Shown here piece after piece: positions 34,700-57,071 of a DNA stretch of 64,000 nucleotides (positions are counted from its first letter, which is position 1; each line of letters starts with the position of its first letter). The stretch covers positions 608,001 to 672,000 of the forward strand of contig CM000151.3 of NCBI GenBank assembly GCA_000004695.1, written 5' to 3'. Position numbers and translations under genes: made by a program. This DNA is from Dictyostelium discoideum. Lineage: Eukaryota. The notes beneath the pieces were generated by a model, which saw only the letters and a list, made by a program, of their open reading frames with translations, was not told where the DNA came from and did no database searches.

Positions 34700-35830
34700 A
34701 TAAAGGATAGATTTAAAGAATCCCATGGAAAAAGGTCAACCAAGACCACAGTTAACACAATCAACAATCATCACCTTTACCAATAATATCAACAACAACA
34801 ACTAGAAAGAATCACTCAAGGAGCAGTACATAAAGGTTATTATTAGTTAATATTGGATGAATTGAATTTGGCACACTCTGAAGTGTTGGGGGGGGGGGGG
34901 CACTAAATCATCTTTTGAATGAATATTTCTCTACCATCGATTTACAAGAAATCTAAAGTTATTGATGTCATTGATAGTGACTAATGGCGATCATTTAATT
35001 GGCAAATATTTTAATTGGTTTAGAACTACTCTTACATAAATCTTTAGAATGGGAATCACCAAAAGATCCAGAGCAACCATTAGACGATAAAGGTAAAAAC
35101 ACTTGGTAGTAAATCAAATGTTTCAAACACTGATAAAGAGATGAAAGATGAATCTAATCAAGATAATGCTGATGACTTAAATAGTGGTAGACTCAACCAA
35201 CTTCATCTGAAAATGATACAGGTAGATACTCTTAAAAATCTTAAATTTCAACTACCACCACTACCACCACAATCAAGTGCATAACAACCGCTAAAGAAAC
35301 AAAAAACAAGTTGATAAAAATCCATGTAGATCAATGGGTGATGCAAATTATGAGTTAAAGAAATGTTTAAATCTTAAACAAGAGCAAGAGGAACAATCAT
35401 GAACCAAAAGAAAAAGCACCAAATGCCAAAGAAAATGAAAATGAAAATCAAGATCATGAATTCATTAAAGATGATGAAAAACTTTATAAAGATTAAGAAA
35501 CCGATCAAGCTTTAGCCGCACTCTCAGTAGTAGTTACAAGATATTCCACTAAATAAAGCTAAAGATGATCAAGCAGAACAAGAAGAGGATCAAATGGATA
35601 TCGAAAATGAATCATTCATAATAGATTCGATTGAATCTAAAGGATATGAAGAGATTGGTGGAGGCACAACAAAGAATTGTTTTCAATTTGAAAACATTAA
35701 CTGGATTTTTTAAATCACCACTTTCTTGTTGTTACTTTTTTTCAAAGTGAAATTTCACAAAATAAAAGAAATGAAGTAATTCAATAAATAAAGAATTTTT
35801 AAATTAAGCTGATTTGGGAAGATATTTTCC
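34700..35830. repeat. GC-richer degenerate coding-like segment (decayed gene or transposon relic); its sub-segments recur at 54556-54770 and 48560-48745
   Basis: Codon-like composition but with stop codons in all frames. About 85% identity for 35215-35320 and 35525-35600 versus 54556-54700. About 85% identity for 35690-35810 versus 48640-48745 (the ...tttttaaatcaccactttc...gtgaaatttcacaaaataaaagaaatgaag... block). Confidence 0.5.
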
Positions 35831-36310: not shown

Positions 36311-36659
36311 TTAATCATTATGTTCTTTGAAATAACGTCTAATGAGTGGGAATCTAGATAATTTCTTTAAGAAATCATAGTAAGGACTTTTAGGACCTTT
36401 TGGAGCTCTTTGATCACCAAATGTGTAATGTTTAGAGATTTGAGTAGCATGCTTTGCACGAACTTTTAGACGTAAATTATCAAGATATCTAAATGCTCTT
36501 CTTTGTTTTTTCTCTTGCAAATAGCTCTCAAGATATTCTTTTCCGATTTAGAAAATGTATGCTAAAAATATTATAAATACAACAATACCAGCATACATTC
36601 CAATTGGAAATTCTGTTGTTTCCTTTTCACCATAACTAATTGTTGATTCATCTTTACAA

Positions 36660-36691
<32 letters not shown>

Positions 36692-39239
36692 TACAGCAAC
36701 AGTAATAAATAAATAGTTGAGAGATTGATGTATGTATGTATTTATAAAACTTACATTTAAATTGGAAAATTTCAGCAATAAAGTATTGACCATCAACAGA
36801 GATACTGATATTGAATTTAGTATCAGAGTAGTTATATTTTAGCATTTCAGCATAGTTGGTTACATTACAGGATACACTAGAGTAGGTGTGAATGTCAATT
36901 TCATGTTGTGTGCATGGTTTGCCATCAATTAGAATTTCAAGATTTGAATCACCAAATGATGTACCATATATAGTGATTAGAGCAGTTTGATCGATTGAAG
37001 ATGTGTTTGTGATGGTTGGTGGTTCAAATTTGTAGTAATAGCCTGCAGATGGTAGTTGGTAGTTATACATTCTTTCAGTATCAGCACTTGAACTTGTGAT
37101 TAGTAATCTTTTAGAACCAGATGTATAACGTGGTGAAAGTGATCTAAGATTTGGTGCAATTGTACATTCAATGGTTGTAACATTAATTGAAGAAATATTA
37201 CACACTACTTTACCAATGGTAACGGTTGTTGTATCTTTGGCATAGTCAAAAAAGTAATGACCATTAATAGTAACCATTCCACCACCACATGGCACTGCAG
37301 GATCACTATTTTCAATAATAGGTTTCAAAGTGTATTGTTCAAGCATATTACTTTGTTGATCACCAAGTTGGAATCTATAGCTTGCAGTCTTTTTATTACC
37401 TACAGGATAACCAAATATAAGATACTCATGGCCACTTGCTATTACTGTACCATTTAATGTAATGCCACCAGAAAAAACAACAGTTATTATCGAATCCTTA
37501 ATAGAGTCACCTAGGTTATAACCATTAATTTTAATGTTACCATTTTTCTCTTGATAAACTTCAGTAAGTTGTGGAGGATTGTAACTAACATTAAATGAAC
37601 CAATTTGTAAAAGATTATAGTAAATGTTTATCGTGTGGTTTGACCCGAAGCCAGATTTTAAAACACAAGTAAATGATAAACCATCACCATCTTTCGAATG
37701 AATACAAATTGGACCATCAGGCTCACTCTCAAATGTTAATGGGATATCTCTACCATCAAAATCTACAGTTCTCATAAAGATACCTTTAATTTTTAAATCA
37801 TCACCAGGTGTATTTGATTTAAAGCTTTGACCATCAGTAATAGTTGGAGTGATCTTGAAATTATATCTTGGAGCTCTAAATGATTCATCACCATCCTCAA
37901 TAGCGAGTTCCATAAAACCAGGCTGGGTATTATTTGGTAGGAATATGAAAATGGTATTATTACTTTCAATAAAAAAACCAGGTTCTTCCAATGTTGATGT
38001 AGAATTCATTTTGGTAATATTGGTTTTCATACTCATACCAGTAATTACAGTAATAACAATAACTTTAGAAAGATATACACCAGTTACATTGAAAATCTGT
38101 GAATTTCCCCTTTGTTGAACATTTTGAATCAATGGAAGATCATAGGATATTTTAATTGTATTGCTTGTGTATTCACCATCAATCTATTAATAAAAGATCA
38201 AAAAATAATTAGTAATTGGTTATGTTTAGTTATAATATATATTATTATCTCTTACAGTAACAGTTAATGGAATATTATAGCCAAGAAAACCATAGTTTTT
38301 ACGAGTTGGGAGAGTGCATGTTATACTTTTTGAAGAATTGGTGTTGAAACATTCAATTCTTTTATTACCAAAAGTACCGGTAACATTTTGTTTAGATCTT
38401 AAATGATTTCCAGTAAATGTAACATTTCCACCATTATTGTTTAGAACTCCTTCCATTCTTATCAGTTCTGGTGAAAATGAGAAAGTATAACTTCTATAAA
38501 ATGTGTCACATATTTTGACATCTATTTTCCAGAGACCCTGATATCTTGCTTCATTTATTGAAAATTTAACCTCGGTGTGGTCATCATTAATAATACCAAA
38601 CTCTTTGCGATTGGAGTAGATATCATTTTTTGAAAAAATTTCAATGGAGGTGTTAAACAGGTTACTTCCTTTAATAGTAAAACTACCCTCACCATCAAGT
38701 AATGGATCTACTGGTATTGAACCCATTTCATACGTAGCATCGAAAAAGTTCCATTTGCCCAACCTATTATCATAATAAAATTTTAAAATACCGCATCCTT
38801 TGGGTATTTGGATATTGAAAAGGTCCAATGTAGAGTTATAGATAGGCCAAAAATTAACACCATTTAATATAATAGGTTTTACCATCCCATTTGACCTATA
38901 TGCAAGATTATATTCAAAGTTAAAATTTCCACCAGTGGTTGGCATTTTTGGAAACGAAGAGATCTCTGGTATAAAAAAAACTAAAGCCGAAATGTCGTAT
39001 AGCTTGTTTTTGTATGGGTAATTGAGAATATCAAAATAATATCCATCAGCAGCCTTTTCTAGACTAACTTCAATTGCTTTATTATCATATAGGGTAAATG
39101 ATTCTACCTGTTTTGTGCAATTTAGTTTAGTTACCACCAATGAGTTTGGTGATTCATCCTTCGTAAAAATACATTCTGGTTTGGAAAATAAAAATTTATA
39201 AATTAAAATTACAAAAATAGATATATATTTTATTTTCAT
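36311..39239 (-). CDS. tgrB-type IPT/TIG-repeat single-pass membrane protein (tiger family); join(38256..39239,36755..38183,36548..36651) ~839 aa, plus an in-frame 79-aa basic tail ORF (36311..36547) beyond a TAA
   Basis: Signal peptide MKIKYISIFVILIYKFLFS. Repeated IPT/TIG signatures (GGMVTINGHYF, ITVVFSGGITLNG, IYGTSFGD). Donor GTAAGA at 38255 with acceptor attaatag at 38184. Donor T|GTAAGT at 36754 with acceptor ttgtaaag at 36652. Transmembrane helix GMYAGIVVFIIFLAYIF. An in-frame TAA (36548-36550) is followed by a stop-free tail ORF (IGKEYLESYLQEKKQRRAFRYLDNLRLKVRAKH...RRYFKEHND). The gene is divergently paired with a tgrC-type gene. Confidence 0.8.
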
Positions 39240-39654
39240 TTTATATAAATTAAAAAAAATAAAGAAAAATTTTATTATTAAAAAAAAAAAAAAATAAAGA
39301 AAAATTTTATTATTAAAAAAAAAAGAATGAAATAAAAGAAAAAAAAAAAACTAAAGTGGGACAAAAAAAAAAGAAAGAAATAAAAGAAAAAAAAAATAAA
39401 GTGGGACAAAAAAAAAAAATTGTGTTTTGCTTTAAATAATTTTTGAGAAATTTTCTAAAGAGTGTGAGTTTCGATTAAAATATATTTAATCAGCCCTTTC
39501 AAAAATTTGGAGGGGGGGTTAAATAATTTTTTTTGGATTTTCTAAAACTTCAAACAGTGTCATTTCGATTAAAATAAAAATTTTAAACCCCTTTACTCAA
39601 ATTTCTCCTATTTATAGAATTTATTAATATTTTTTTAAATAAATTTATTATTAT

Positions 39655-39697
<43 letters not shown>

Positions 39698-39754
39698 TAC
39701 TTGGGTTTTTTTTATTTTTTAATCATTTTATTAATTCTTTTTAAAATTATAATT
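39240..39754. promoter_or_regulatory. shared bidirectional promoter between the tgrB-type (minus) and tgrC-type (plus) genes
   Basis: 515-bp AT-rich intergenic region between two divergent start codons. It contains an internally duplicated GC-containing module (39440-39500 and 39541-39610: agagtgtgagtttcgattaaaatatattt..cccttt..caaaaatttggaggggggg). The same module recurs upstream of the second tgrC-like gene at 43095-43160. Confidence 0.5.
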
Positions 39755-42384
39755 ATGATTACATTAAAAACTATATTATTTTTAATTTTTTTAGTTTCAT
39801 TTGTTTCATCAGATAATAAAATTAAACCACCTATAGCATGGGGTATTTAGCATTTTTAATTTTAATAGTTGGGTTTTTAAAAATTAATGTTTTAATAATT
39901 AATATTTTTATTTTTATATTTTTTAATAGAGGTAATACGCAATGAAACTTCTTTGATATTAACATATTATAAAAGTCAACCTTATGTTACGAGTCTTATT
40001 ATGTTCAAAGACAAAACCACTCCAAGAACTGATTTTCCAAATTATTTTAATTGTAGTCTCATTGTTGGAGAATTTAGATATTGTATATTCCATTCTGAAC
40101 TTCCTTTTTCAAGATTCTGGGGTAGTATTTATAGTAAGGTATGTGCAAGAGAAGAAGCAGATCCAAGAGAGGATTGCACGTCCTATACATTAGATGAAGT
40201 GATATATATTCATCCATATAATGTTAAATTTAGTGGGCCTGTACCAACATCAGGAGGTGATATTATTATTAACGGTACTTTTTTAAGAATCTCAGGAGGT
40301 CCAAATACAATGGATTATGTCGTCCATGGTTCTTTTTCGAAAGTGGTTGTCAAAGGTAATTTCTCAGATCCATCATTTAACTGTAATAATATCACCGTTA
40401 CGATTCCACCAGGTGGCGGATTTTTTAAACTAATTTTTGGCGAACTTGGAGGAGGAGAATTTGATATTTCATATGCACTTCCAATAATTTCAGATATTGT
40501 CCAGGATTCATCAAAACAACTAATTACAGTTAATGGCCATAACTTTTTTACTGATAATGGATTGGTAGGTGTTTTTTTTGATAATGTCTACCAAAAAAAT
40601 ATAAATATTACAATCAATCATACACAAATTCAAGTGATGGGATTTAATAGAGTTGATCCTGGTCCAATGTCTATTGCTATTGTTATAAAAGATGTATATA
40701 TCGAAAAGAATTATATTCATTGTTTCCCAGCAATAATAACATCAATATCATCAGTATCAAATGAATTGGGTGGTATTGTAACAATTAAAGGTTCAAAGTT
40801 ATCTTCAACTTCAAATTCATCATTAATTCCAACAATTACAATTGGTAAAAAACAATGTAAATTTATTAAATCATCAACAACTGAATTAGAATGTAAATTA
40901 GATCCAAATGAATTTGGCGGTAAAAAGTTATCAGTTGATGTTAATTTCAATGGTTGTAATTCAACAAGTTCTAGTAGTATTCCTGTAACATTTACATATA
41001 ATATCCCAACATTATCAAGTGGGTCATTTTCAAATGGTGTCGTTGCTTTAATTGGGAAAAACCTAGGAAATTATGATGAATCATTCATTCAATTATATGC
41101 AAGTGGAATTAATACAAAAATTGACAAATTTTATACATCATCTGATGAAAAGAGTATATCATTTAAATTACCACTTTTGAGATGTAAATCATTTAATATA
41201 AGTTTCAATAGTGATGGGATTTCTTCAAATGTACTTTCAATTTCAGCATCATTATCAATTAATGTAATTAATAAACCATCAGTACCAAATGGAACATTAA
41301 ATATTGAATTTTATTATATCGATTGTTCAATTAGTTCATCATCAACACCATATATTACAGTTGGTAACTTCTTTACCTATCAATGTTCAATACCATCATT
41401 ACAATCACCAACATTAGATTTTTATCAAACATCATGTTCAATACCATATGGTACTGGTATGAATAAACAATTCACATTCAAATATTATTCATATGAAGTA
41501 AATGAAAAATTTTCATATTCACCACCAAAAGTTGAATCACGTTCATTCTCTAATGATAAAACTATTATTACAATTAATGGTAATAATTTTGGTAATTCAA
41601 AATCATTGATTCAAGTTTATTTCAATGGTAATGATATTTCATCAAAAATTCAATCATTAAATAATAATCAATTTACATTTAAAATATTAAATTCATATAA
41701 AAGTGGTCCAATTAATATTACTGTAGATGGTAGTAGTATGGATTCGTTATTTTATTTAACATTACCCCCTATTATTAATGATATAATAAATAAAGATAAT
41801 AAAACATTAAGTTGTGGAAGTTTAATTACAGTTTCAGGCAATAATTTATTAACAAATGATGAAGAATTCAAAGTTAAAGTATTAGCAAATAATCAAGATA
41901 CAACAATAATTAAACAAGATGAAAACATATTATTAGTTAAATCTGATAATAATGAGAGTCCACTAAATGTTTCAGTATTTATTGGTAATGATTTAATAAT
42001 ATCAAATGTAACATTAACATATTTAGAACCAATAATTACAGTAATTCCAACTATTAAAAATAATAAAGATGGTATTTCAATAATAATTGGTGGGATTAGT
42101 TTGTCAAATATTATTAATGCAAGTTTAACACTCTCTTCAAATGATAATAATAATACTATAATACCTCTTAAATGTAATTTACAATGTAGTTTGTCCCCAA
42201 ATGGCACATTTTATATTAATAATACAATAAGTTCAAATGAAATTGATATTACTAATCGTTTATTATGCCATTCAAACTCAATTGTTAATGAGACATCAGG
42301 AGTATTAAATCTTCATTTTACTTCGATATCATTCCATCATTTTGTTAAAATTGATGAATCTGAATCTACTTCATCTTCGCCATT

Positions 42385-42468
<84 letters not shown>

Positions 42469-42574
42469 GTCATTTAGTGGCGGAAGTAAATCAAGTAAAT
42501 TATCAAGTAGTACAATTGCTGGTATTACAATTGGTTTTTTTAGTGTTGTTGGGGTTTTTGTTGATATATTTTAA
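39755..42574 (+). CDS. tgrC-type IPT/TIG-repeat membrane protein, ~910 aa; join(39755..39842,39930..42574)
   Basis: Exon 1 encodes signal peptide [19 protein letters not shown]. Donor G|GTATTT at 39843; acceptor taatag at 39929. Exon 2 is the 873-aa ORF. At least seven TIG-like units ([39 protein letters not shown]...). A poly-Ser stalk is encoded by (TCA)n, followed by a C-terminal TM helix ([19 protein letters not shown]) with no cytoplasmic tail. Confidence 0.85.
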
Positions 42575-43345
42575 AAATAATCACTCATGCCAGAAACTCT
42601 TAAAATAAAATTTTCAAATTAATTTTAGAAATTAATGGAAATATAAATATAAACAATAATAAAAAAATAAAAATATTACTTAGGATTTTTTTAAACATTT
42701 CTTTTATTTTAAGCAAACAAGGTTTTTTTTTAATATTTAAATTTATGTCCACTTTTCAATGGCCATAAATTAACCTTTTTTATCTAATTTTTTTCATGAT
42801 TTTGTGCCATATCAATTTCTGCTGGCATTTTAACATATTAATTTCAGCCTAGTATATGCATGCTGCAATTAATATGTCAAAATCACCATAATAGTTCTAA
42901 CATTCAGTTTTAATTAGTGTTTTATCTATATCCTACTTTGGAAAAAATTTAAATAGTGTTTTTTGATTATCCATCATATTTTAAGAAATATTTATTTTTT
43001 ATATATTATCTATGATTTTTAAATTATCCAATTTTTTTTTTAAATTTAGGTGATATGAGCACTCTTGTTATTAAAAAAATTCTGAAGGGGGAGTGGTAAA
43101 TAATTTTAAAGAGTGTTAGTTTCTTTTAAAATATATTTTCATCCCTTCAAAAAATTGTACATAAAAAACTTATTTTTAATTTGATAGGTTCTATTATTAG
43201 AATTTTATAATATTTTTTTAAATTTTTTTATATAATGCTTGAAACATATTTTTTTATTTATTTTATAATTTTTCAATTGTTTGTTTAACAAAAATTTTTA
43301 TATTTATTTTTGTTAATCATTTTGTTTATTCTTTCAAATATTATT

Positions 43346-45954
43346 ATGATATTAAAAACAATATTAATTTTTTCGTTTTTAGTTTCATTTTTTTCAACTG
43401 CTCATTCAATTGAAAAACCTTTTGTAATAGGTATTTATCTTTTAAATTTAAATACAGTGTAAATTTAAATACAGAAATCTATTTTTTTTTAATAATTCCA
43501 TTTATGTTTTTAAAATTAATAACTGTATTTAAATATTGTTGAACATTAGAGGAAATACACAATGAAACTTCTTTGATTTTTAAATTTTATAAAGAAAGGT
43601 CTTATATTAGCCGTCTGGAAATGTATAAAGACCGAGAAACTCCAAGAACTGATTTTCCAAATTATTTCGACTGTACTCTCATTATTGGAGAATATAGATA
43701 TTGTGTTTTGCATTCTGACCTTCCTTTTTCTAGACTATGGGGTAGTATTTATAGTAAGGTATGTGTAAGAGATGTATCAAGTCCAAGAGTGGATTGTATT
43801 TCATATAAGATAATAGATGTTTCATATGTGGCTCCAGTAAATGTCAAATTTACCAGTCTTCCTCCAACCTCAGGAGGTGATGTCGTTATAAATGGTAGTT
43901 TTTTAAGGTTCGTTGGAGGTCCAAATAAACTTGATCATAGCATTCCTCCTTTTAACCCATTTTATGTTAAAGGCGATTTCTCAGATCCATCATTTAACTG
44001 TAATAATATCACTGTTACATTTCCACCAGGTTCCGGATCATTTTGGGTATTTTTTATTGACGGAGTAAGTGGTGAATATTTAATTTCTTATGCACACCCA
44101 AAAATTTCAGGTTTTATTGTGGATTTATCAAAAAATGTAATAATAATTGATGGAGATAACTTTTTTACTAATAAATCTTTGGTTCAAGTTTATTTTGATG
44201 ATATCCAACAACAAAATATAAGTATTACAATTAGTCATACACAAATTCAAGTAATAAACTTCAATAGAATCGATCCTGGTCCAATGTCTGTTCTTATTAC
44301 AGTAAATGGAGTTCAAACCCAAAATAATTATACTCATTGTTTCCCGTCAATTATTACATCAATATCTTCAGTATCAAATGATTTGGGTGGTATAGTAACA
44401 ATTAAAGGTTCAAAGTTATCTTCAACTTCAAATTCATCGATAATTCCTTCAATTACAATTGGTAATAAACAATGTAAATTTATTAAATCAACAACAACTG
44501 AATTAGAATGTAAATTAGATCCAAATATATCTAGTGGTAAAAAGTTATCAGTTGATGTTAATTTCAATGGTTGTAATTCAACAAGTTCTGGTAGTAGTCC
44601 TGTAACATTTACATATAATATTCCAGCACTATCAAGTGGGTCATTTTCAAATGGTATCGTTACATTAATTGGGGAGAATCTTGGTAATAATAAAGAATCA
44701 TTCATTCAATTATATACTAATGAAATTAATATAAAAATTGAAAAATTTAATATATCATCTGATCAAAAGAGTTTAACATTTAAATTGCCACATTTAAAAT
44801 GTAAATCATTTAATATTAATTTCACTCGTAATAATATTTCAATTAACACAATTTCAATTTCGGCATCATTATCAAATAATGTAATTAATAAACCATCAGT
44901 ATCAAATGGAACATTATTTATTGAATTGTATTATATCGATTGTCCAATTAGTTCATCATCAAAACCAACTATTACAGTTGGTAATTCATTAACCAATCAA
45001 TGTTCAATACCATTATTAAAATCATCAACATCAGATTATTATGAAACAACATGTTTAATACCATTTGGTACTGGTATCAATAGACAATTCGCATTGAAAT
45101 ATAATTCAGAGTTAGTAAATAACATTTTCTCATATGCACCACCTATTATTAATGATATAATAAATAAAGATAATAAAACATTAAGTTGTGGAAGTATTAT
45201 AACAGTTTCAGGTAATAATTTATTAACAAATGATGAAGAATTCAAAGTTAAAGTATTAGCAAATAATCAAGATACAACAATAATTAAACAAGATGAAAAC
45301 ATATTATTAGTTAAATATGATATTAATGAGAGTCCACTAAATGTTTCAGTATTTATTGGTAATGATTTGATAAAATCAAATGTAATATTAACATTTTTAC
45401 AACCAATAATTACAGTTATTCCAAATATTAAAAATAATAAAGATGGTATTTCAATAATAATTGGTGGAATTAGTTTGTCGAATATTATTAATTCAAGTTT
45501 AACACTCTCTTTAAATGATAATTTAAATACTATTATACCTCTTAAATGTAATTTACAATGTAGTCTATTTCCAAATGATACATTTTATTATAATAATACA
45601 GTATTAAGTTCAAATGAAATTCATATTACAAATTATACTGATAGTTTATTATGTCATTCAAATTCAATAATTAATGAAACATCAGGAGTATTAAATATTC
45701 AATTTGCTCAAACTTCATTCCATTATGATGTTAAAATTGATGAAATTGAATCTTCATCATCATCATTTTCACAATCATCTTCACCATCATCTTCACCATC
45801 ATCTTCACCACCATCTTCAACATCATTATCATCTTCACCATCATCATCATCATCATCATCAATAAGTGGTGGAAGTAAATCATTAAGTGGTACAGTTGCA
45901 AGTATTACAATTGCTTGTGTTGCTGTTGTTGGTGCTCTTGTTGCTATAATTTAA
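43346..45954 (+). CDS. tgrC-type paralogue 2, ~822 aa; join(43346..43430,43550..45954); lacks one TIG unit relative to 39755..42574
   Basis: Same architecture: signal peptide MILKTILIFSFLVSFFSTAHS, donor G|GTATTT and acceptor cattag. About 70% aa identity to the upstream paralogue. An ~88-aa segment ([16 protein letters not shown]...[10 protein letters not shown]) present in the first paralogue is absent. Ser/Pro-rich stalk followed by TM helix ITIACVAVVGALVAII. Confidence 0.85.
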
Positions 45955-46559
45955 AATAATCAATCGTGCTTAAAACTCTTTTAAAATAATATTTTCAAAT
46001 TTATTTAAAAAAAAAAAAATTAATGGAAATATAAATAAACAATAAACAATAATAAAATATTATATGAATTTTTTTTAATTTCTTTATTTTCAATGCAAAA
46101 GTGATTATTATATTGTTATTGTTATTTTTATTATTATTGATAGTGATGTGTAGTTAATGGTGATACTAAACGAGTTTCATAATATAATTTCATTAAATGA
46201 TGCTAACTGCGAGTTAATTTAACTTTTCTTTGACAGAGTCTTTATCCTCCTCAACACCATCATTTTCTTCGATTTCTTGATAATTATTATCAAAACTTTT
46301 TCTTTGTCAATATTTGTGAGATTTTATAACTGTTCCTTTGTGAATTTTTGATTTAAGCCATCCAATTTTCTCTTTCTTTTTGTTGTTACTATTTCCGATA
46401 TCTATTTGATCCTTTTCTTGTTCTGCTTGATCAACTTTCTTCCTCCTCATCTTTAGCTTTATTTTGTGGAATATCTTGTACCTCTGAGAGCGCAGCCAAA
46501 GGTGGATCGGTTTCTTAATCCTTATCAAGTTTTTCATCATCTTTAATGAGTTCATAATC

Positions 46560-46917
46560 TTGATTTTCTTAGGTATTTGGATCTACTACTAAGTGTTACT
46601 ATTATTATTACTATTACTATTACTATTACTATTACTATTACCAATAGCAATACTATTTCCATCAACTGAATTTAAACTTGATAAACTAGTTGAATTTGTT
46701 GTTGATTCTTCTGTTGAGTGTTGAAGTGGTTGTATTTGTTAATAATAATGAGTGTGAAATTGAAATATGATAAAATTGATCAGAGAAATGGTAGGTGTTG
46801 TGCCCAAAAAAGCGAAAGTGAAAAATAAATTCCCTTTTTACTATTACCAATGTTCCTTGGATATTTAATAATTAAATTAGTGGAATTAAACATAGTCTTA
46901 ATATTTTTAATGACACA

Positions 46918-46948
<31 letters not shown>

Positions 46949-47110
46949 TATTAACATAGATTTTTATATTTATTTATTTACTTATTTTTATTTATTTATT
47001 TATTTATTTTTTTTATTATTTATTTTTTTTATTATTTATTTTTTTTAAAAAAAAACTAACATCTAATGTACATTTTTTATTGGTATTTATTTTTTGTTTT
47101 CTTTTTGGGT
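46560..47110. repeat. segmental repeat R2 (second copy at 54780-55050)
   Basis: (ctattactatta)n followed by ctaacatctaatgtacattttttattggtatttattttttgttttctttttgggttgatgtgg. This matches ...tacatctaaatgtacattttctatttgtatttattttttgttttcttttttggttgatgttgc at 54960-55040. Confidence 0.5.
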
Positions 47111-48345
47111 TGATGTGGATCTTATTATAAGAAAGTAATGAAAAATGAAATATTAATTAATATTTAAAAAAAAAAATTAAATTCCCAACCCAGGCCCAAA
47201 AAAAAAAACAATTATTTTATTTTTTATTTTTTATTTTTTATTTTTTTATTTATAGATTTTCCATATATGTAGTTTGTGTAAAAATAATAGAATTTATTTT
47301 TTTATTTTAGTATAATAAAATGAAGTGAATTAATTAATCCATTCAATATAATAAATAATAAACAATAGTAGTATTAGTAGTTATAACTATGATTAATGCA
47401 ATTTTAAACTTTCTGAAAAAAAAGTGATTAATAAATTGCCAAGATATTAAATAGTGTTCGACCTTTTTCCCTTTTTGGAAAAAAAGGGTGTTTTTTTAAA
47501 TTTCCCTTCTATTCCATGTTTTTTTTAAAAACTTCCATATTAATATAATATTTTTATATTACATTTTTTTTTCAATTATCCAGAGGCTCAGCAAAATTTT
47601 TTTTTTTTAATTATTTATTAATTATGGGTCACCCAATTCAATTTATCTATTCATTAATTTTTTATTTTTTTTTTTTATTTTTTTTTTACAGTTTAAATAA
47701 TAAAAACAAAAAAAAAAAATCAACTAAACACTTTAAGTTATTATAAAAGTTTCATAAAATTTAACAACCACATTTTTTAACAGTTATCATCAAAAATAAA
47801 AACAAAAAAAAAAAAAAAAAATTATAATGATAATTGATAACGTAAAAATTTCTTTCTATAATTATTAATATTATTTGTTTGAAAAGTTTATTTTACAAAT
47901 AGTTACATAATTATTATTTGTTTTTTTTAATGTTTATTTTACAAATTGGTTATTTTTAAAATTTTTATTTTTTTTTATATAATATTTGAAATTAAAAACA
48001 CTTTATAACCACAATTTATTTATTTATTTTTAACGGATAAAAATTGTAGATTCTGAGTAAGTATAGTTTGTATATTGAACATAAATGATATGTTTAAAGA
48101 TTTATTATTTTTATAAAAATAAGGCGAAAAATAAAAAATGAAAAATTTCCGGAAAATGGAAGATTTCCATTTTCCATTTTCTACCATAATTTGAATTTTT
48201 TTTCCGGAAATTGGCCAACACTAATATTAAATATATTGGTGGTGCTGAAGAACAAGAAGAAAAAGAAGAACAAGAAGAAGAGAATTCAATTGAAATACCA
48301 GTGGTAGAAGAACAATTAGATGGTGGATAGTAAAAGGAATTAAAG

Positions 48346-48490
48346 AGGTAACTCTGCATCTGTTTTTATTTTTTCAGGTGATGATAGTGGTGGCAATCAT
48401 AATAATTGTGGTAATGGTAATAATGTAACAATCGTAATAAAGATAGTAATAGTAGTGGTATCGATGATGATAATAATAATAACAATAATA
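48346..48490. repeat. segmental repeat R3 (second copy at 56062-56190)
   Basis: ctgcatctgttttt..ttcaggtgat(g/a)atggtgg..aatcataataattgtggtaat(g/c)gtaataatgtaacaatcgtaataa is shared by both copies. In the 56-kb copy it is fused directly to the tgrB-like intron/exon junction. Confidence 0.45.
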
Positions 48491-48774
48491 TTAATAATAT
48501 AGCTTATTTATTTATAATGGTGGATTAGATTTAGTAGAAAAGTACTTTCTAAATTGTTATTATCTACTTCTTCCTCTTCATCAATCGAACCATTTAAAAT
48601 ACCAATCACAAAAAAGGACGTTTACAAAGGACTGTTTTCAAATTCAACAATATTGAAAACATTAATTGGATTTTTTAAATCATCACTTTCTAATTGTGAA
48701 ATTTCACAAAATAAAAGAAATGAAGGAATTCAATAGAATTTTTAAATATTAGATCCGACTTATAATGAACAACA

Positions 48775-48783
48775 ACACCAAAT

Positions 48784-48872
<89 letters not shown>

Positions 48873-49095
48873 TAATTAATTAATGAACGTCAGTTACTAC
48901 AACAGCAGATTCAATTAACTAAACAGCAACCACAACAACAGCAACAATTAATTAATGAACGTCAACAACAACATCAACAACAACAACAATTAATTAATGA
49001 ACGTCAGTTACTACAACAGCAGATTCAATTAATTAAACAGCAACCACAACAACAGCAACCAATGAATCATACAACACCTCCATCACCTCATCATT
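48775..49095 (+). repeat. (CAA)n microsatellite plus 2.3 tandem copies of a ~63-bp unit (ttaattaatgaacgtcagttactacaacagcagattcaattaaYtaaacagcaaccacaacaacagcaac)
   Basis: Read directly from the sequence. It would encode a poly-Q/LINERQ repeat and is fused at ~49092 to the 3'-truncated tgrB-like pseudogene. Confidence 0.6.
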
Positions 49096-51458
49096 TAAGA
49101 TTTGAATCACCAAATGATGTACCATATATAGTGATTAAAGCAGTTTGATTGATTGAAGATGTATTTGTAATGGTTGGTAGTTCAAATTTGTAGTAATAAT
49201 CTGCAGATTGTAGTTCGTAGTTATACATTCTTTAAGTATCAGCACTTGAACTTGTGATTAGTAATCGTTTAGAACCAGATGTATAACGTGGTGAAAGTGA
49301 TCTAATATTTGATGCATTTACACATTCATTGGTCGTAACATTAATTGAAGAAATATTACACACTACTTTACCGATGGTAATGGTTTTTGTATCTTTGACA
49401 TAGTTAAAAAAGTAATGACCATTAATAGTAACCATTCCACCTCCATATGGCACTTCAGGATCACTATTTTCAATAATAGGTTTCAAAGTGTATTGTTCAA
49501 GCATATTACCCCGTCGATCACCAAGTTGGGAAATTTAGCTTGCCGTCTTTTTATTACCTATAGGATACCCAAATATAAGATACTCATGGCCACTTGCTAT
49601 TACTGTACCATTTAATATACTGCCATCAGAAAAAACAACAGTTATTATTGAATCCTTAATAGAGTCACCCTAGGTTATAACCATTGATTTTAATGTTACC
49701 GTTTTTCTCTTGATAAACTCCAGTAAGTTGTGGAGGATTGTAACTAACATTAAATGAACCAATTTGTAAAAGATTATAGTAAATTTTTATCGTGTAGTTT
49801 GACCGGAAGCCAGATTTTAAAACACAAGTAAATGATAAACCATCACCATCTTTTGAATGAATACAAATTGGGCCATCAGGCTTACTATTAAATGTTAAGG
49901 GATATCTCTGCCATCAAAATCTACAGTTCTCATAAAGATACCTTTAATTTTTAAACTATCACCAGGTGTATTTGAATAGAAGCTTTGACCATCAGTAATA
50001 GTTGGAGTGATCTTGAAATTAAATCTTGGAGCTCTAAAAGATTTATCACCATCTTTAATAACTAGTTCCATAAACCAGGCTGGGTATTATTTGGTAGGTA
50101 TATGAAAATGGTGTTATTACTTTCAATAAAAAATCCAGGTTCTTCCAATGTTGATGCATACTTTTTGGAAATATTGGTTTTCATACTCATACCAGTAACT
50201 ACTGTGATATTACTAACTCTAGAAAGATATATACCAGTTACATTGAAAACCTGTGAATTGCCCCTTTGTTGAACATTTTGAATCAATGGAAGATCATGCG
50301 ATATTTTAATTGTATTGCTTGTGTATTCACCATCGATCTATTAATAAAAGGTCAAAAATAAATTAGTAATTGGTTGTATGTAGTTATAATCTCCTATTGG
50401 TTTTGTATTCACCATCAATCTATTAATAAAAGATCAAATAATAATTAGTAATCGGTTATAATATATATTATTATCTCTTACAGTAACAGTTAATGGAATA
50501 TTATAGCCAAGAAAACCATAGTCTTTACGAGTTGGGTGAGTGCATGTTATACTTTTTGAAGAATTGGTGTTGAAACATTCAATTACTTTATTACCAAAAG
50601 TACCGGTAACATTTTGTTTAGATCTTAAATAGTTTCCAGTAAATGTAATATTTCCACCATTATTATTTAGCACTCCTTCCATTCTTATCGGTTTTGGAGA
50701 AAATGAGAAATAATATTCACTATAAAATGTGTCACATATTTTGACATTTATTTTCCATTCGCTCCGATAACTTGTTTCATTTATTGAAAATTTGACTTCA
50801 GTATGAGCATCATTAATAGTACCAAACTCTCTGCGACTGGCTTTAGTATCATTTTGAAGAGAAAAGATTTCAATGGTGGTGTTAAACAGGTTACTTCCTT
50901 TAAAAGTAAAACTACCCTGATCATCAAGTATTGGAACTTTTGACATTTCGCCCTTTTAATACGTTGTATTGAAAATATTCCACCTTCCGATATTATTATC
51001 ATAAAAATTTAAAATACCACATCCTTTGGGTATTTGGATATTAAAAAGGTCCAATGTAGAGTTATAGATAGGAGTGGATATAAAATCTTTTGTTGAGATA
51101 GCACCTTCCCAGTTGACTTATTAGGAAAATTATATTCGAAGTTGAAATATTCACCTGTGGTTGGCATTTTTGGAAACAAAGAGATCTCTGGTACAAAATG
51201 AATACTTGAAGACAGGTCGTATAGCTTGTTTTTGTATGGGTAATTGAGATTATCAAAATAATAATAATTTCCATCAGTAGCCTTTTCTAGATTAACTTCT
51301 ATTGTTTTATTATCATATAAGGTAAATAGTTCTATCTGTTTTGTGCAATTTAGTTTAGTTACCACCGACGAGATAGGTTCATTCTTCATAAAATCACAAT
51401 TTGATTTGGAAAATAAAAATTATAAAATTATAAAAATAGATATATGTTTTATTTTCAT
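49092..51458 (-). pseudogene. tgrB-type pseudogene (psi-A2): 3'-truncated, with frameshifts and stops
   Basis: Colinear with 36940..39239 of the intact tgrB-type gene, including the intron. ORF fragments at 49232..49504, 50062..50286, 50434..50946 and 51009..51389 are all in the tgr family. A stop follows codon 12 after the ATG at 51458. The C-terminal exon and tail are missing. Confidence 0.75.
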
Positions 51459-51628
51459 TTTTATAAATTACATTTAAATTTAAAAAAAAAAAAAAATTAA
51501 GAAATATTTTATTAAAAGAATAAAAAAAAGAGTAAATGAAAAAAATGAAAAAAAAAAAATTAAGAAATATTTTATTAAAAGAATAAATGTTAATTTAATT
51601 AATAATAATATTTATATTTTTAAAATAG

Positions 51629-53318
51629 AGGTAATACACAATGAGACTTCTTTGATATTAACATTTTATAAAAATTAACCCTATGTTACCAGTCTTATTA
51701 TGTACAAAGACAAAACCACTCCAAGAACTGATTTTCCAAATTATTTTAATTGTAGTCTCATTGTTGGAGAATTTAGATATTGTGAATTCCATTCTGACCT
51801 TCCTTTTTCAAGGTTCTGGGTAGTATATATAGTACGGTATGTGCAAGAGAAGTATCAGATCCAAGAGAGGATTGCACATCCATTTAATTGATGTGAAATA
51901 TATTCCCCATATAATGTCAAATTTAGCAGACTTCCACCAACGTCAGGAGGTGATTTTATAATAAATGGTACTTTTTTAAGAGTCTCAGGAGGTCCAAATA
52001 CACTTGATTTTTTCACAAGGGATGATCATTTGAAATTAGTTGTTAAAGGTAATTTCTCAGACCCATCATTTAACTGTAATAGTATCACTGTTACATTTCG
52101 ACCAGATGGCGGATTAATTTTGTTGGTTTTTGGCGAACTTGGAGGTGGGGAATATAGGATTTCATACGCACCTCGAATGATTTCAAGTATTGTTCACAAT
52201 CCATCGAAACAAATAATAACAATTAATGGTGATAACTTTTTTAATGATGACAGAAAGGTTGGTGTTTTTTTTGAAAAAATCTACCAACCAAATATAAATG
52301 TTACAATTAACCACACTCAAATTCAAGTGAATAACTTTAATAGAGTTGATCTTGGTCCAATATCTATTGCTGTTGTTGTAAAAGATTTATATATTGAAAA
52401 GAATTATATTCATTGTTTCCCTGCCATATTAACATCAATAACATCAGTATCAAATGTTTTAGGTGGTATTGTAACAATTAAAGGTTCAAAGTTATCTTCA
52501 ACTTCAAATTCATCATTAATTCCTTCAATTACAATTGGTAATAAACAATGTAAATATATTAAATCAACAACAACTGAATTAGAATGTAAATTAGATCCAA
52601 ATGAATCTGGTGGTAAAAAGTTATCAGTTGATGTTAATTTCAATGGTTGTAATTCAACAAGTTCTGGTAGTAGTGCTGTAATATTTACATATAACATTCC
52701 AACATTATCAAGTGGATCATATTCAAATGGTATCGTAACATTAATTGGTAAAAATTTAGGAAATTACCAAGAATCATTCATTCAATTATATGCAAATGGC
52801 ATTATTACAAAGATTGATAAGTTTAATACTTCATCTGATGAAAAGATTTTAACAATTAAATTATCACTTTTAAGATGTAATTCAGTAAATATTAATTTCA
52901 ACATGGATGGTATTTCTTCAAATAACCTTTCAATTTCAGTATCGTTATTAACAAATATAATTAATAAACCATCAGTATCAAATGTAACATTTTATATTGA
53001 ATTATATTATATTGATTGTCCAATAAGTTCATCAACACCAACTATTACATTTAGTAATTCATTAACCAATCAATGTTCAATACCATCATTACAATCATCA
53101 ACATCCGATTTTTATCAAACTACATTCTCAATACCATATGGTACCGGTATCAATAAACAATACACATTCAAATACATTAAATGATTAATTCTCATATTCA
53201 CCACCAAAAGTTGAATCACGTTCATTCTCTAATGATAAAACTATTATTACAATTAATGGTAATAATTTTGGAGATTCGAAATCATTGATTCAAGTTTATT
53301 TCAATGGTAATGATATTT
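51629..53318 (+). pseudogene. tgrC-type pseudogene (psi-B3): lacks exon 1 and promoter, with frameshifts
   Basis: It starts at the exon-2 acceptor (aatag|AGGTAATACACAATGAGACTTC). A frameshift near 51830 gives [15 protein letters not shown] stop lies at 53185 with homologous sequence continuing out of frame to 53318. Only ~200 bp separate it from the psi-A2 start, compared with 515 bp in the intact pair. Confidence 0.75.
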
Positions 53319-53609
53319 CAACCCCTCCCCCACTTAAATTAATATCTTTTTTTTTCTAACGCCACAAAAAGTGCAAAAATTATTACAAAATAAATATTTT
53401 CAAAATTCAAAATAAAAGAAATAAATAATGTATATTTTATTTAAATTTAATAAAAAAAAATTTTTGAAGCAAATTATATATTATTAAAATTTTTTTTTTT
53501 AATATTTTTTTTTTTATTTAATGAGCCAAAACATATTTTATTATTTATTTTCTAAGTTTTGGTTGAACATTTTTTTTTTTTCATTTTTTTTATCCTTTTT
53601 AATATTATA

Positions 53610-54555
53610 ATGACATTAAAAACAATATTATTTTTGACTTTTTTGGTTTTATTTTTTTCAACTGCTTATACAATTGAAAAACCTTGGGTTACAGGTATTT
53701 ATCTTTTTTAATTTTTATACAGTTTAGTATTGAAGTCAATTGTTTTTAAAAAATTCTATTTTCATGTTTTGTAATTAAATAGAGGTAATTTACAATGAAA
53801 CTTCATTGGTTTTTAAATATTTTAAAGATCAACCTTATATTAGCCGTCTTGTAATGTATAAAGACCGAGAAACTCAATATTTCGACTGTACTCTCATTAT
53901 TGATGATCATAGATATTGTGTATTCCATTCTGACCTTCCTTTTTCGAGATTATGGGGCAGTCTAGAGAGTATGGTATGTTCAAGAGATGTATCAAGTCCA
54001 AAAGTGGATTGTTTATCCTATAGGATTATAGATGTTTCATATGTGAAACCAATAAATATTAATTTTACCAGACTTCCTCCAACATCAGGGGGAGATATTG
54101 TTATTAATGGTAATTTTCTAAGATTCGTTGGAGGTCCTAATAAACTTTATAATAGCATTTCTCATAGTAATCCATTAGAAGTTAAAGGAGATTTCTCATA
54201 TCCATCATTTAACTGTAATAGTATCACTGTTTCATTTCCCCCAGGTTCCGGACCATTTGAGGTGTATTCTATTGACAGAATAGGTGGAGAATATTTAACT
54301 TCTTATGAACCGCCAAAAATTTCAAGTTTTATTCTGGATCCATCAAAACAAATAATAACAATTGATGGTGATAACTTTTTTACTGATAGCTCTTTGGTTC
54401 AAGTTTATTTTGATGAAATCCTACAACAAAATATAAGTATTACAATTAGTCATACACAAATTCAAGTGAAACACTTTATTAGAACCGATCCTGGCCCAAT
54501 GTCTACTCGTATTACTGTAGATCAAGTTTCGACACAAAATAATTATATGATATAA
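53610..54555 (+). pseudogene. truncated tgrC-type 5' gene fragment (psi-B4); join(53610..53694,53783..54555)
   Basis: Intact signal-peptide exon and splice sites, with a B2-like promoter remnant upstream. There is an in-frame ~18-nt deletion (RETQYFDC versus [14 protein letters not shown]). Homology ends at 54545, where repeat R1 begins, leaving a stop after ~280 aa and no TM domain. Confidence 0.65.
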
Positions 54556-55050
54556 ATAGGTACACTTTAAAATCTTAAATTTAAACCACCACCGGTACAA
54601 TCAAGTGCATAATAACCACCAAAGAATCAAAAACTAGTTACAAGATATTTCACTAAATAAGGCTTGAAAAAGATCATCAAGATTGTGAAGATGATAAATT
54701 GAATGGTTCAAATCAAAAAGAACAATTCATAAAGGTTTGATTTTGATTGAACCACCTAACGACTTTTTGGGGTCTCTTGTATGATAATTCATTCCAAAGA
54801 TGATTTGATGACTGTTACCATTACTATTACTATTACTATTACTATTACTATTACTATATATATTATTTTCTCTACTTATACCAATAGCATACCAATACCA
54901 ATTGTTATTTTTTTTTTTTTTTTTTTTATTATTTATTATTTATTTGTTTATTTACTTATTTATTTATTTATTTTTACATCTAAATGTACATTTTCTATTT
55001 GTATTTATTTTTTGTTTTCTTTTTTGGTTGATGTTGCTCCTGTATTATTT
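54556..55050. repeat. composite of repeat R1 (54556-54770) and R2 (54780-55050) abutting the truncated tgrC fragment
   Basis: See R1 (34700-35830) and R2 (46560-47110). Confidence 0.5.
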
Positions 55051-55536
55051 GATTTTATTAAAAGACAATTATTTTTTTTAATTATTTATTTTTATTTTTT
55101 TTATTTTTTTTTTTATAAAAATTTTTATTTTTTGTATACAAAATATATCAAAAACGAATTTAATTATTATTATTTTTAATTTTTTTTTTTTTTTTTTTGG
55201 GTTCAATTGAGAAAAAAAAATTAACTTGACTGAATTAGTTGTTTTTTTTTTATTTTTTAATAAATGAATTAAGTTATCTTGTTACATCTTGTTTTTTTTT
55301 TAATTTATTAATTCAAACATTCACATTATTTTTTAAAAAAAAAAAAAAAAAAATATACCAATTAATTCAACCAAATTTTTTTCTTTTTTAAAATCTATTT
55401 TTTATATAAAATATATTCACTCTTTGTTGTTCTTCAAAATAAAAAATAATTACAAAAAATGAATGAAAAATAATTAAATTCTATATACTTAATATTCACA
55501 AAAATTCTTATTATATAAGAGTAATTTTTGTTTGTA

Positions 55537-55776
55537 TTAATTTTTATTGTTCTTTATTCTGATCCCCATGGTTCCTTGGCATTCAACCTGGTATGTACAA
55601 TTTCTTTCATTGTCATCAGCGCTTCTATCACAAATTGAACACTCGCGTTTTCCATATGTTCCACCTTCACTGTAATGTAAGTTTCCCCCACATTCTCTGA
55701 TGTGCTTTTCTGGTGATGGTAATAAACGCAAACAAGAGTTGCATTGATATTCTTGGGTTAATTTTGTTCTGCTCAT
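55537..55776 (-). CDS. small Cys-rich ORF, 79 aa, unusually GC-rich (~40% GC)
   Basis: MSRTKLTQEYQCNSCLRLLPSPEKHIRECGGNLHYSEGGTYGKRECSICDRSADDNERNCTYQVECQGTMGIRIKNNKN. Eight Cys including two CxxC pairs. No signal peptide. Its composition is unlike surrounding DNA. It could be a zinc-ribbon micro-protein or a transposon ORF relic. Confidence 0.3.
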   Translation of the reverse strand: MSRTKLTQEYQCNSCLRLLPSPEKHIRECGGNLHYSEGGTYGKRECSICDRSADDNERNCTYQVECQGTMGIRIKNNKN

Positions 55777-56184
55777 ATTGCAATCGTTATAAAATTAAAT
55801 TGTGAAAAACTTTTTTCAAAATTTTGATTTTTATAATAAATATTTTTTCCTCTCAAGATTTTAAAAAAAAATTCAATTTTTTTTTGATTTTGTTTTGCAG
55901 AGTCACATCTTATCTTTGTAAATGTTTTTACATATAAATTACATAGTTTTATTTGAAAAATTTTTTTATTTTTTTTTTTGGGTTTCCAGTATGTTTTTAT
56001 CAATATTGTTGTAGGGAATTTTCAATAAAATTTCACTGCCCAGCGCAGTGAATTTTATTATTTAATTTCACTCTACTGCATCTGTTTTTTTCAGGTGATA
56101 ATGGTGGTAATCATAATAATAATAATTGTGGTAATCGTAATAATAATGTAACAATCGTAATAATGATAGTAGTAGTGATGATGA

Positions 56185-56941
56185 CTATGATAATTTATAA
56201 AACTTACATTTAAATTGGAAAATTTCAGCTATAAAGTATTGACCGATGTACCATATATAGAGATTAGAGCAGTTGGATCGATTGAGGATGTGTTTGTGAT
56301 GGTTGGTGGTTCAAATTTGTAGTAATAGTCTGCAGATGGTAGTTCGTAGTTATACATTCTTTCAGTATCAGCACTTGAACTTGTGATTAGTAATCTTATA
56401 GAACCAGATGTATAACGTGGTGAAAGTGATCTAAGATTTGGTGCAATTACACATTCAATGGTTGTAACATTAGTTGGAGAAATATTACACACTACTTTAC
56501 CAATAGTAATGGTTGTTGTATTTTTAGCATAGTTAAAAAAGTAATGACCATTAATAGTAACCATTCCACCTCCGCATGGCACTGCAGGATCACTGTTTTC
56601 TATTATAGGTTTCAAAGTGTATTGTTCAAATATATTACTCTGTTGATCACCAAGTTGGGAAATATATCTTGCCGTCTTTTTATTACCTACAGGATAACCA
56701 AATATAAGATACTCATGGCCACTTGCTATTACTGTACTTGGACCGCTAGGCTTACTCTTAAATGTTATTGAGATATCTCTTCTCACATCATATAGGGTAA
56801 TTGATTCTACCTGTCTTGTGCAATTTAATTTAGTTACACCAATGATTTAAAAGATTCATTGTTCATAAAACCACATTATGATTTAGAAAATAAAAATTTA
56901 TTAATTAAAATTATTAAAATAGATATATATTTTATTTTCAT
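56185..56941 (-). pseudogene. tgrB-type pseudogene (psi-A3) with a large internal deletion
   Basis: ORF 56229..56786 matches the mid-gene TIG units (GGMVTINGHYF..). 56787-56941 matches the first ~50 codons and ATG region of the intact gene (compare 39060-39240), so about 1.6 kb between them is deleted. The 3' exon is replaced by repeat R3. Confidence 0.7.
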
Positions 56942-57004
56942 TTTTATCAATTACTAATTAATTTTAAAAAATATATTTTGTGTTTAAAAAAAAAAAGTTT
57001 GTTT

Positions 57005-57046
<42 letters not shown>

Positions 57047-57071
57047 GAGTCTAAAATAAAATCTTGTTTAA

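Follow-up and report, generated by a model that had tools for sequence, protein, structure and literature searches.

The segment between 49.1 and 57.0 kb of a 64,000-nucleotide stretch of the Dictyostelium discoideum genome (GenBank assembly GCA_000004695.1, contig CM000151.3, positions 608,001 to 672,000; the whole stretch is hereafter named the window and is numbered from its first letter) very probably holds units 2 and 3, both decaying, of a tandem array that arose by segmental duplication within a cluster of tgr genes on chromosome 2. The repeat unit is formed by a tgrB-like gene on the minus strand, a common bidirectional promoter, two tgrC-like genes of types X and Y on the plus strand and a spacer of ~3 kb. 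Unit 1 (36.3-49.1 kb) is largely intact, unit 2 has decayed and unit 3 is reduced to the single copy A3. Homology among the copies, their collinearity, their lesions and their reproducibility in an independent assembly were observed directly.

Repeat structure of the array

The copies, tgrB-like (A) and tgrC-like (B), follow one another in the order A1(-) B1(+) B2(+) spacer, A2(-) B3(+) B4(+) spacer', A3(-). The following features were delimited (ORF, open reading frame; aa, amino acids):

36311-49093: unit 1 (A1, B1, B2 and spacer), to the left of the fragment region
36311-39239, minus strand: A1, tgrB-like, XP_645603.2
39755-42574, plus strand: B1, tgrC-like of type X, 910 aa (conceptual)
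43346-45954, plus strand: B2, tgrC-like of type Y, 829 aa (conceptual)
45955-49093: unit-1 spacer
49094-51458, minus strand: psi-A2, tgrB-like non-processed pseudogene, aligned to codons 1-~744 of the A1 model
51459-51582: A2/B3 intergenic stub, A-proximal upstream sequence plus the deletion junction (~51564-51582)
51583-53320, plus strand: psi-B3, tgrC-like pseudogene of type X, without exon 1
53321-53442: filler of 122 bp between psi-B3 and the B4 upstream region, in place of ~1.5 kb (the B3 3' end and most of the inter-tgrC spacer)
53443-54555, plus strand: B4, truncated tgrC-like gene of type Y, intact ORF of 285 aa
54548-54735: inverted copy of the normal tgrC-like 3' flank, abutting the B4 breakpoint
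54736-56192: shortened spacer of unit 2, AT-rich and of low complexity, with (ACTATT)n at 54811-54857
56193-56941, minus strand: psi-A3, mini tgrB-like pseudogene, ATG at 56941
56942-57050: tgrB-proximal upstream remnant of unit 3

Alignment of 47.5-58.5 kb with 35-47.5 kb by blastn gave these matches, all with E = 0 or <1e-58:

49094-50390 with 36936-38236, 92.5% identity
50395-51563 with 38159-39354, 82.7%
51572-53320 with 39874-41641, 85.9%
53479-54547 with 43192-44332, 78.2%
56245-56737 with 36958-37450, 94.3%
56787-57050 with 39084-39357, 77.8% (includes the upstream remnant of unit 3)

An earlier note on this DNA had described here a pair of pseudogenes plus stray fragments and suggested a dot-plot of 36-40 kb against 49-57 kb. 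Every block that it listed was recovered by blastn, with matches far beyond chance, and the limits that it gave (49092-56941) deviate by no more than 2 bp on the left and not at all on the right. The pieces are, however, better described as units 2 and 3 of a tandem array than as a pair with strays.

The two tgrC-like copies of unit 2 each have their own counterpart in unit 1. In blastn, B3 is closest to B1 (86%, versus 80% to B2) and B4 is closest to B2 (78%, versus 70% to B1). A phylogeny of the fragments, which the earlier note had suggested as a way to date the duplications, agrees with this assignment: in a neighbour-joining tree built from the first ~780 bp of exon 2 of the tgrC-like copies, type Y {B2, B4, FIR_Y} has 100% bootstrap, while type X {B1, B3, FIR_X} is recovered without strong support (B1+B3 59%). 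The synonymous divergence (dS) is 0.27 between B1 and B3 and 0.26 between B2 and B4, the equality to be expected of a joint duplication of X and Y. For the flanking PH gene, dS between AX4 and strain FIR is 0.064, about four times lower than the dS of ~0.26 of the array duplication, which is therefore old relative to strain divergence. The spacers of units 1 and 2 share collinear anchors (46582-46662/54801-54881, 46982-47116/54905-55034 and 48354-48471/56076-56194), and the sequence that lies downstream of A1 (35684-35804) has a second copy downstream of A2 (48648-48747). No tgrC-like sequence was found by tblastn to the right of the psi-A3 upstream remnant.

The fragments carry the domains of the Tgr family (Tiger: transmembrane, IPT/TIG, Ig-like E-set repeat). 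Pfam matches above the gathering threshold were obtained for TIG (PF01833) and Ig_TgrO1 (PF24612) in B4 and in a 384-aa ORF of psi-B3, and for TIG in ORFs of psi-A2 (170 aa) and psi-A3 (185 aa). A hydrophobic N-terminus and a transmembrane segment are present in A1, B1 and B2 of unit 1. Among the four fragments the signal-peptide exon is found only in B4, and the transmembrane region is absent from all of them: A2, B3, B4 and A3 are remnants of Tgr members, not complete members. Intron 1 is kept in psi-A2, the 3' remnant of intron 1 in psi-B3, the intron in B4 and the intron-2 donor in psi-A3, so the copies are non-processed duplicates; upstream sequence of the parent is also kept for A2 and A3. 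They thus show the introns, parental flanks and lesions of non-processed pseudogenes, with the exception of B4, which is truncated without a disabling point lesion.

The same structure is found in an independent de novo assembly of Nanopore and Illumina reads (GCA_054883475.1; PMC12745789), which we infer to be that of AX2-214, since among the D. discoideum genomes of that project it alone is near-identical. It is collinear with the window over 41701-64000 (22.3 kb; 99.74% identity). Inside 49.1-57.0 kb it differs by two substitutions (55358 and 56522) and no indel. Since every junction, frameshift and stop is reproduced, they are not assembly artefacts, and the long-read check put forward in the earlier note comes out in favour of the reference sequence. 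Note that the AX2 gene caller fused B3 and B4 into one 741-aa model that splices around the lesions.

Lesions and breakpoints of the individual copies

Unit 2 has been inactivated by deletion of the promoter and of exon 1, by frameshifts and stops in A2 and B3, and by deletions of one kilobase or more that removed the 3' ends of A2, B3 and B4. In unit 1 the initiation codons of A1 and B1 (39239 on the minus strand and 39755 on the plus strand) are separated by 515 bp, and the two genes are paired head-to-head around a common intergenic promoter, an orientation kept by psi-A2 and psi-B3. The A1/B1 bidirectional promoter (39340-39620) has a G+C-richer core with paired direct repeats: AAAGTGGGAC is found twice, and TTTCGATTAAAAT twice exactly, at 39469 and 39563. 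When one mismatch is allowed, the window-wide count of TTTCGATTAAAAT is not above chance as estimated from shuffles. All these repeats lie within a block that is missing from unit 2. There, the match of 51459-51563 to 39240-39354 breaks off, and alignment to unit 1 is taken up again only at 39874-39883, within intron 1 of B1; the 519 bp that are absent (39355-39873 in A1/B1 coordinates) comprise the G+C-richer promoter core and exon 1 (39755-39842). The distance from the A2 ATG (51458) to the start of the B3 exon-2 equivalent (51629) is 170 bp, versus 690 bp for the A1/B1 equivalent. The earlier note had reported a divergent pair ~200 bp apart, without promoter and tgrC-like exon 1 and with frameshifts in both members, a description that holds in each part, the indels being now located in both pseudogenes.

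In psi-A2 everything 3' of A1 position 36936 is gone, including the end of the ectodomain together with the exon for the transmembrane segment and the cytoplasmic tail. The blastn identity of psi-A2 to A1 is 92.5% in the 3' part and 82.7% in the 5' part. Frameshifts are found at ~51102 (-4), ~50075 (-1), ~49899 (-1) and ~49670 (+1), a TAA occupies codon 13 of its own frame, and stops in the parental frame are located at 50958, 49537 and 49234. A tandem duplication of ~75 bp spans the intron 1/exon 2 junction (~50390-50465). The truncated 3' end abuts a (CAA)n-rich stretch (48750-49090) with tandem repeats of 114-bp and 42-bp period, whose plus-strand reading is poly-Q/LINERQ and which stands in place of the A-type transmembrane and tail exons.

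In psi-B3 the 3' remnant of intron 1 (51583-51628) is followed by the exon-2 equivalent (51629-53320), which reaches ~codon 600 of 910; its homology stops at B1 position 41641. Exonic identity is 87.0% to B1 and 80.4% to B2. The lesions are a TAA at 51676, deletions at 51817 (-1), 51881 (-4) and 51905 (-1), and a deletion of 11 bp at 53175 followed by a TAA at 53186. For the 122-bp filler (53321-53442) no homology to unit 1 was detected by blastn or alignment.

B4 is composed of an upstream region (53443-53609), whose homology to the B2 upstream sequence starts from ~53443-53479, exon 1 coding for the signal peptide (53610-53694), an intron (53695-53782) and exon 2 including the stop codon (53783-54555). 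The 285 codons, about one third of the ~830-910 of a tgrC-like gene, encode the signal peptide, one Ig_TgrO1 domain and one TIG domain. Exonic identity is 84.5% to B2 and 71.3% to B1, and besides the truncation the sole lesion is an in-frame deletion of 18 bp. The conceptual product is exactly AX4 XP_645610.1 (Q55AT6), so B4 is a gene in the reference and not the pseudogene that the earlier note had seen in it. The same note had interpreted B4 as an intact 5' third cut by the insertion of a repeat. The 5' third is intact; what abuts the breakpoint is not an inserted repeat but inverted flank of the array itself. Segment 54548-54639 matches positions 20255-20170 of the locus of strain FIR (L001), and 54663-54735 matches positions 19740-19673 of the same locus and 20584-20512 and 12020-11948 of that of strain FIY (L005), all in inverted orientation and just downstream of three tgrC-like stop codons. 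The flank (54548-54735) also matches window positions 35213-35305, 35531-35573 and 46455-46483 (inverted). The junction displays a short imperfect microhomology (AAAATAATTATA versus AAAATGATACA). As read from these alignments, B4 was truncated by a deletion that went together with the local inversion of the 3' flank of the gene itself, and microhomology-mediated joining would be the way in which the deletions of the array arise.

A transposon or repeat insertion at the B4 breakpoint was considered and rejected, the flank matching only inverted 3'-flank and spacer sequence of the same array. The piggyBac-like gene of strain FIW (see below) has no match in the window by blastn or tblastx. Neither a Pfam transposase match among the spacer ORFs nor a nearby tRNA was found, no Dictyostelium-wide repeat library being compared, and a tRNA scan of the window returned only a tRNA-Arg at 10267.

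The order of segments in psi-A3 is codons 1-52, a piece of 43-47 bp (codons ~473-487), codons ~573-737 and codons ~793-805 with the intron-2 donor, with identities to A1 of 86%, 79%, 93.6% and 95-98%, respectively. Three internal deletions join these segments. Codon 22 of this copy is a TAA (56878), a -1 frameshift lies at 56838, and the last junction is out of frame and creates a TAG. The earlier note was right that the first ~50 codons of a tgrB-like gene are joined here to its middle; two further junctions are present. Copies A2, B3 and A3 would make no protein.

The tgrB-like copy of unit 1 is itself affected. An in-frame TAA (TAT->TAA; 36548-36550) is found in A1 directly after the transmembrane segment (...FLAYIF*IGKEYLES...), and it removes a conserved cytoplasmic tail of 79 aa. 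In strains FIR and FIW the codon is TAT and reads Tyr. The gene models deal with the stop differently: the 885-aa model of AX4 continues its reading frame into intron 2 and leaves out the transmembrane exon, and the 900-aa model of AX2 splices around the stop. There is therefore no fully intact tgrB-like gene in the AX4 cluster, and A1 is not the intact reference copy that it had been presumed to be. The near-identical AX2 counterpart of the B2 product is 777 aa long. Y-type tgrC-like genes are devoid of one ~80-aa repeat, B1 41527-41767 being unmatched in B2; since Z-type and Y-type copies of other strains share the gap, it is a subfamily feature and not a sign of decay.

Other sequences of the region are described here for completeness. 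A G+C-richer island of the unit-2 spacer contains a Cys-rich ORF of 79 aa (CxxC...CxxC; 55537-55776, minus strand), which has only a weak, sub-threshold Pfam match to DZR (double-zinc-ribbon), is missing from unit 1 and from the loci of the other strains, and is not called as a gene in AX2. To the left of the array, segment 34676-35800 holds short ORFs in shifting frames, which suggests a decayed coding region; copies of pieces of it (35213-35305, 35443-35608 and 35684-35804) turn up, in both orientations, in the spacers of the array. Its counterpart in FIW is a gene for a 530-aa piggyBac-like transposase (DDE_Tnp_1_7), without homology to the AX4 sequence. Farther away, the tRNA-Arg(TCT) gene (10267-10339) is followed, ~100 bp downstream, by an ORF of 446 aa (10440-11780) without Pfam match that may be the remnant of a tRNA-targeted retroelement. 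Such elements are common in Dictyostelium.

Identity of the locus and its state in other strains

The G+C content of the window is ~22%. Three of the proteins that it encodes are 100% identical to RefSeq proteins of AX4 chromosome 2: the PH/SAM protein DDB_G0271552 (XP_645597; 29.2-31.6 kb), the tgrB-like protein of A1 (XP_645603.2/V9H176; 36.3-39.2 kb) and that of B4 (XP_645610.1/Q55AT6; 53.6-54.6 kb). The tgrB1/tgrC1 allorecognition locus of AX4 is found on chromosome 3, between wacA, chdB and DDB_G0280717 (PMC12745789), and the genes of the window lie outside that interval. TgrB1 alleles are the closest named relatives of the A1 protein, at 60-62% identity. The B1 protein is 58% identical to LagC/TgrC1 and 61% to TgrD1; neither A1 nor B1 reaches allelic-level identity to TgrB1 or TgrC1. 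Because of its chromosome 2 position and of protein identities of only ~60%, the cluster beside DDB_G0271552 is a paralogous tgrB-like/tgrC-like side cluster and not the tgrB1/tgrC1 allorecognition locus. The earlier note, which saw a tgrB/tgrC recognition cassette that had duplicated and decayed as a whole, was therefore right about the gene family, the duplication and the decay, and wrong about the locus. A recognition role of the chromosome-2 cluster would be putative. The AX4 tgr family counts 38 genes and 26 pseudogenes, named in B/E/J and C/D/K clades, with tgrD1-tgrE1 as an isolated pair elsewhere (PMC12745789). By elimination from this naming the cluster may correspond to tgrJ/tgrK, as a candidate name.

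At the same position beside the PH gene, tgr arrays of differing size are found among strains:

FIW (L004): A-W-Z, a tgrB-like (A3-like) fragment of 626 bp, then the AX4 right flank (57061 onward); no unit 2
FIR (L001): A-W-Z-Afrag-X-Y
FIY (L005), a cryptic-species strain: A-C-A'-X-Y

The array would grow and shrink by unequal (non-allelic homologous) crossing-over between tgrB-like copies. The 3' half of A1 and the left flank match the first-unit A of FIR, whereas A1 exon 1 has ~82% identity to the FIR second-unit fragment and only ~65-70% to the FIR first-unit A (dS 0.83). This split affinity is the pattern expected of an unequal crossover between tgrB-like copies. Occasional gene conversion would also exchange sequence among the copies: A1, A2 and A3 of AX4 cluster by strain (95% bootstrap), and the dS of tgrB-like exon 2 is 0.10-0.11, compared with 0.21-0.27 in exon 1 or in the tgrC-like genes. 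Strain-wise clustering and low exon-2 dS suggest such conversion; no discrete tract that leads from one of the copies A2, B3 and A3 to A1 or B1 could be demonstrated.

The promoter region of the second pair is deleted in 3/3 lineages that have a second unit, and the breakpoints differ. Comparison of window 39355-39873 with L001 15633-16275 and L005 14975-15049 gave the deletions 39355-39873 in AX4/AX2, 38941-39370 in FIR and 38974-39841 in FIY (A1/B1 coordinates). This recurrence could be coincidence, could reflect fragility of AT/poly-T intergenic sequence, or could result from selection to silence extra pairs.

Decay versus retention, and comparison with known systems

Several observations weigh against the view that 49.1-57.0 kb holds plainly duplicated and decaying units. 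Spacer homology is patchy, with three anchors of ~80-135 bp at 78-81% identity, and each spacer has a unique segment (47117-48353 in unit 1, 55380-56075 in unit 2); the units must therefore have been heavily remodelled. In the 408-bp segment common to A1, A2 and A3 the tree is without the hybrid pattern of a single simple unequal crossover, and the distances in this segment do not support a scheme in which A2 is a simple A3/A1 hybrid. The ratio of nonsynonymous to synonymous substitution rates (dN/dS), obtained by three-taxon partition, is ~0.42 on the B3 branch and ~0.52 on the B4 branch, in both cases below 1 and not above the values of the intact B1 (0.69) and B2 (0.64). Numbers of stop codons were also compared with those predicted by a simulation in which the observed substitutions are placed neutrally:

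A2: 4 stops observed, 4.6 expected (P = 0.5)
B3: 2 observed, 5.3 expected (P = 0.09)
B4: 0 observed, 2.5 expected (P = 0.07)
A3: P = 0.6 in the same simulation

The counts of B3 and B4 are thus somewhat below the neutral expectation, though not significantly so. A2 looks long dead. B3 and B4 may have been constrained for much of their history or may have died recently, and B4 may still be alive, in which case it may still encode a secreted Ig-fold fragment of 285 aa.

From these figures it could be argued that certain seemingly dead copies still serve a function, B4 as a secreted Ig/TIG fragment or A2/B3 and A3 as silent conversion donors. We consider this unlikely, albeit the best placed of the alternatives. 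A secreted B4 would parallel TgrB2, which has no transmembrane domain. B4 has retained an intact ORF, signal peptide, splice sites and upstream region of its own, and its product is annotated. The low dN/dS of the B3 and B4 branches and the lack of stops in B4 fit with retention. So do, for the donor role, the strain-wise clustering and heterogeneous dS of the tgrB-like copies, the loss of the second-pair promoter in three lineages with different breakpoints, and the proposal, made for the chromosome-3 locus in two 2025 papers, that partial duplicates act as recombination donors (PMC12745789; 10.1101/2025.10.22.684067). None of these statistics is significant, however, the stop count of A2 fits neutrality, and no conversion tract into A1/B1 was delimited. 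The truncated form of B4 is seen only in AX4/AX2, and FIR has a full-length Y gene. A stronger version, in which the extra pair is actively silenced, the promoter-less pairs are kept as donor cassettes that diversify the expressed pair and B4 is perhaps a secreted decoy, is suggested by the different deletions of all three second-pair promoters, by dN/dS values well below 1 and by the signs of exchange; it appears distinctly improbable.

Independent, piecemeal insertion or transposition of tgr pieces, instead of remnants of whole-unit duplication, is less probable still. The largely non-homologous spacers and the inverted B4 flank could be explained in this way, and the chromosome-3 tgrBC locus is reported to undergo transpositions and inversions. 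Against it, the order and orientation A-X-Y return unchanged, the partners B1/B3 and B2/B4 have diverged to an equal dS, collinear anchors link the spacers, the sequence downstream of A recurs in place, and the searches for transposon sequence (FIW piggyBac-like gene) and for a tRNA in the region were negative. A collapsed or mis-joined repeat, or sequencing errors creating the frameshifts, is hardly credible: the region is rich in repeats and in A+T, the reference, a Sanger assembly, is old, and tgr paralogues are a known cause of wrongly mapped short reads, but the long-read de novo assembly of AX2 is collinear with it and free of indels in the fragment region. Just as remote is a second copy of the tgrB1/tgrC1 cassette itself, which the head-to-head order, the TIG/Ig_TgrO1 domains and the affinity of A1 to TgrB1 alleles could evoke and which the chromosome 2 location, the ~60% identities and the equal closeness of B1 to TgrD1 contradict.

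Duplicated and decaying units therefore remain our preferred reading of 49.1-57.0 kb, and they have a close parallel in the AX4 chromosome-3 tgrBC locus, where a tgrB_ps/tgrC_ps1 pair and the partial duplicates tgrB2 and tgrC2-C5 were described (10.1101/2025.10.22.684067; PMC12745789). In both loci a head-to-head tgrB-like/tgrC-like pair adjoins an intact pair, its tgrC-like member, which contains internal stops, is cut to ~1.7 kb, the truncated copies nearby have no transmembrane domain, and the copies derive from local duplication, deletion, inversion and recombination. The array described here differs by its position on chromosome 2 beside DDB_G0271552, by belonging to paralogous lineages ~60% identical to TgrB1/TgrC1, by the deletion of the common promoter and of the tgrC-like exon 1 in its second pair, and in that no allorecognition role is known for it. 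Unequal crossing-over, pseudogenisation, copy-number polymorphism of haplotypes and signs of conversion are also features of birth-and-death recognition clusters (MHC, KIR, plant NLR, fungal het), although the module here has three genes and contains a divergent ligand/receptor-like pair. Promoter-less defective copies beside an expressed copy, with hints of exchange, recall the silent donors of chicken Ig (pseudo-V) and of trypanosomes (VSG pseudogenes). This is a resemblance only, since here there is no directed mechanism, no demonstrated tract and no evidence of programmed use.

Two studies of 2025 (PMC12745789; 10.1101/2025.10.22.684067) described the birth-and-death dynamics of tgr genes, their pseudogenes and a possible function as donors in recombination. 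Duplication followed by decay is thus already known in kind for this family, and almost certainly in its annotation; with the dynamics on record in those studies and in the AX4 annotation, the chromosome-2 array opens no new question. The refinements added are the unit structure, the exact breakpoints, the inverted B4 flank, the nonsense codon of A1 and, for three lineages, the differing promoter deletions. A tempting mislabel is corrected, the cluster being the chromosome-2 paralogous one and not tgrB1/tgrC1, and the supposedly intact tgrB-like gene that the laboratory strain has in this cluster turns out to be cut by a nonsense codon. The array provides a base-resolved case of turnover in a family of self/non-self type, with a three-gene unit, deletion of a bidirectional promoter, truncations flanked by microhomology and a copy number that is specific to the strain.

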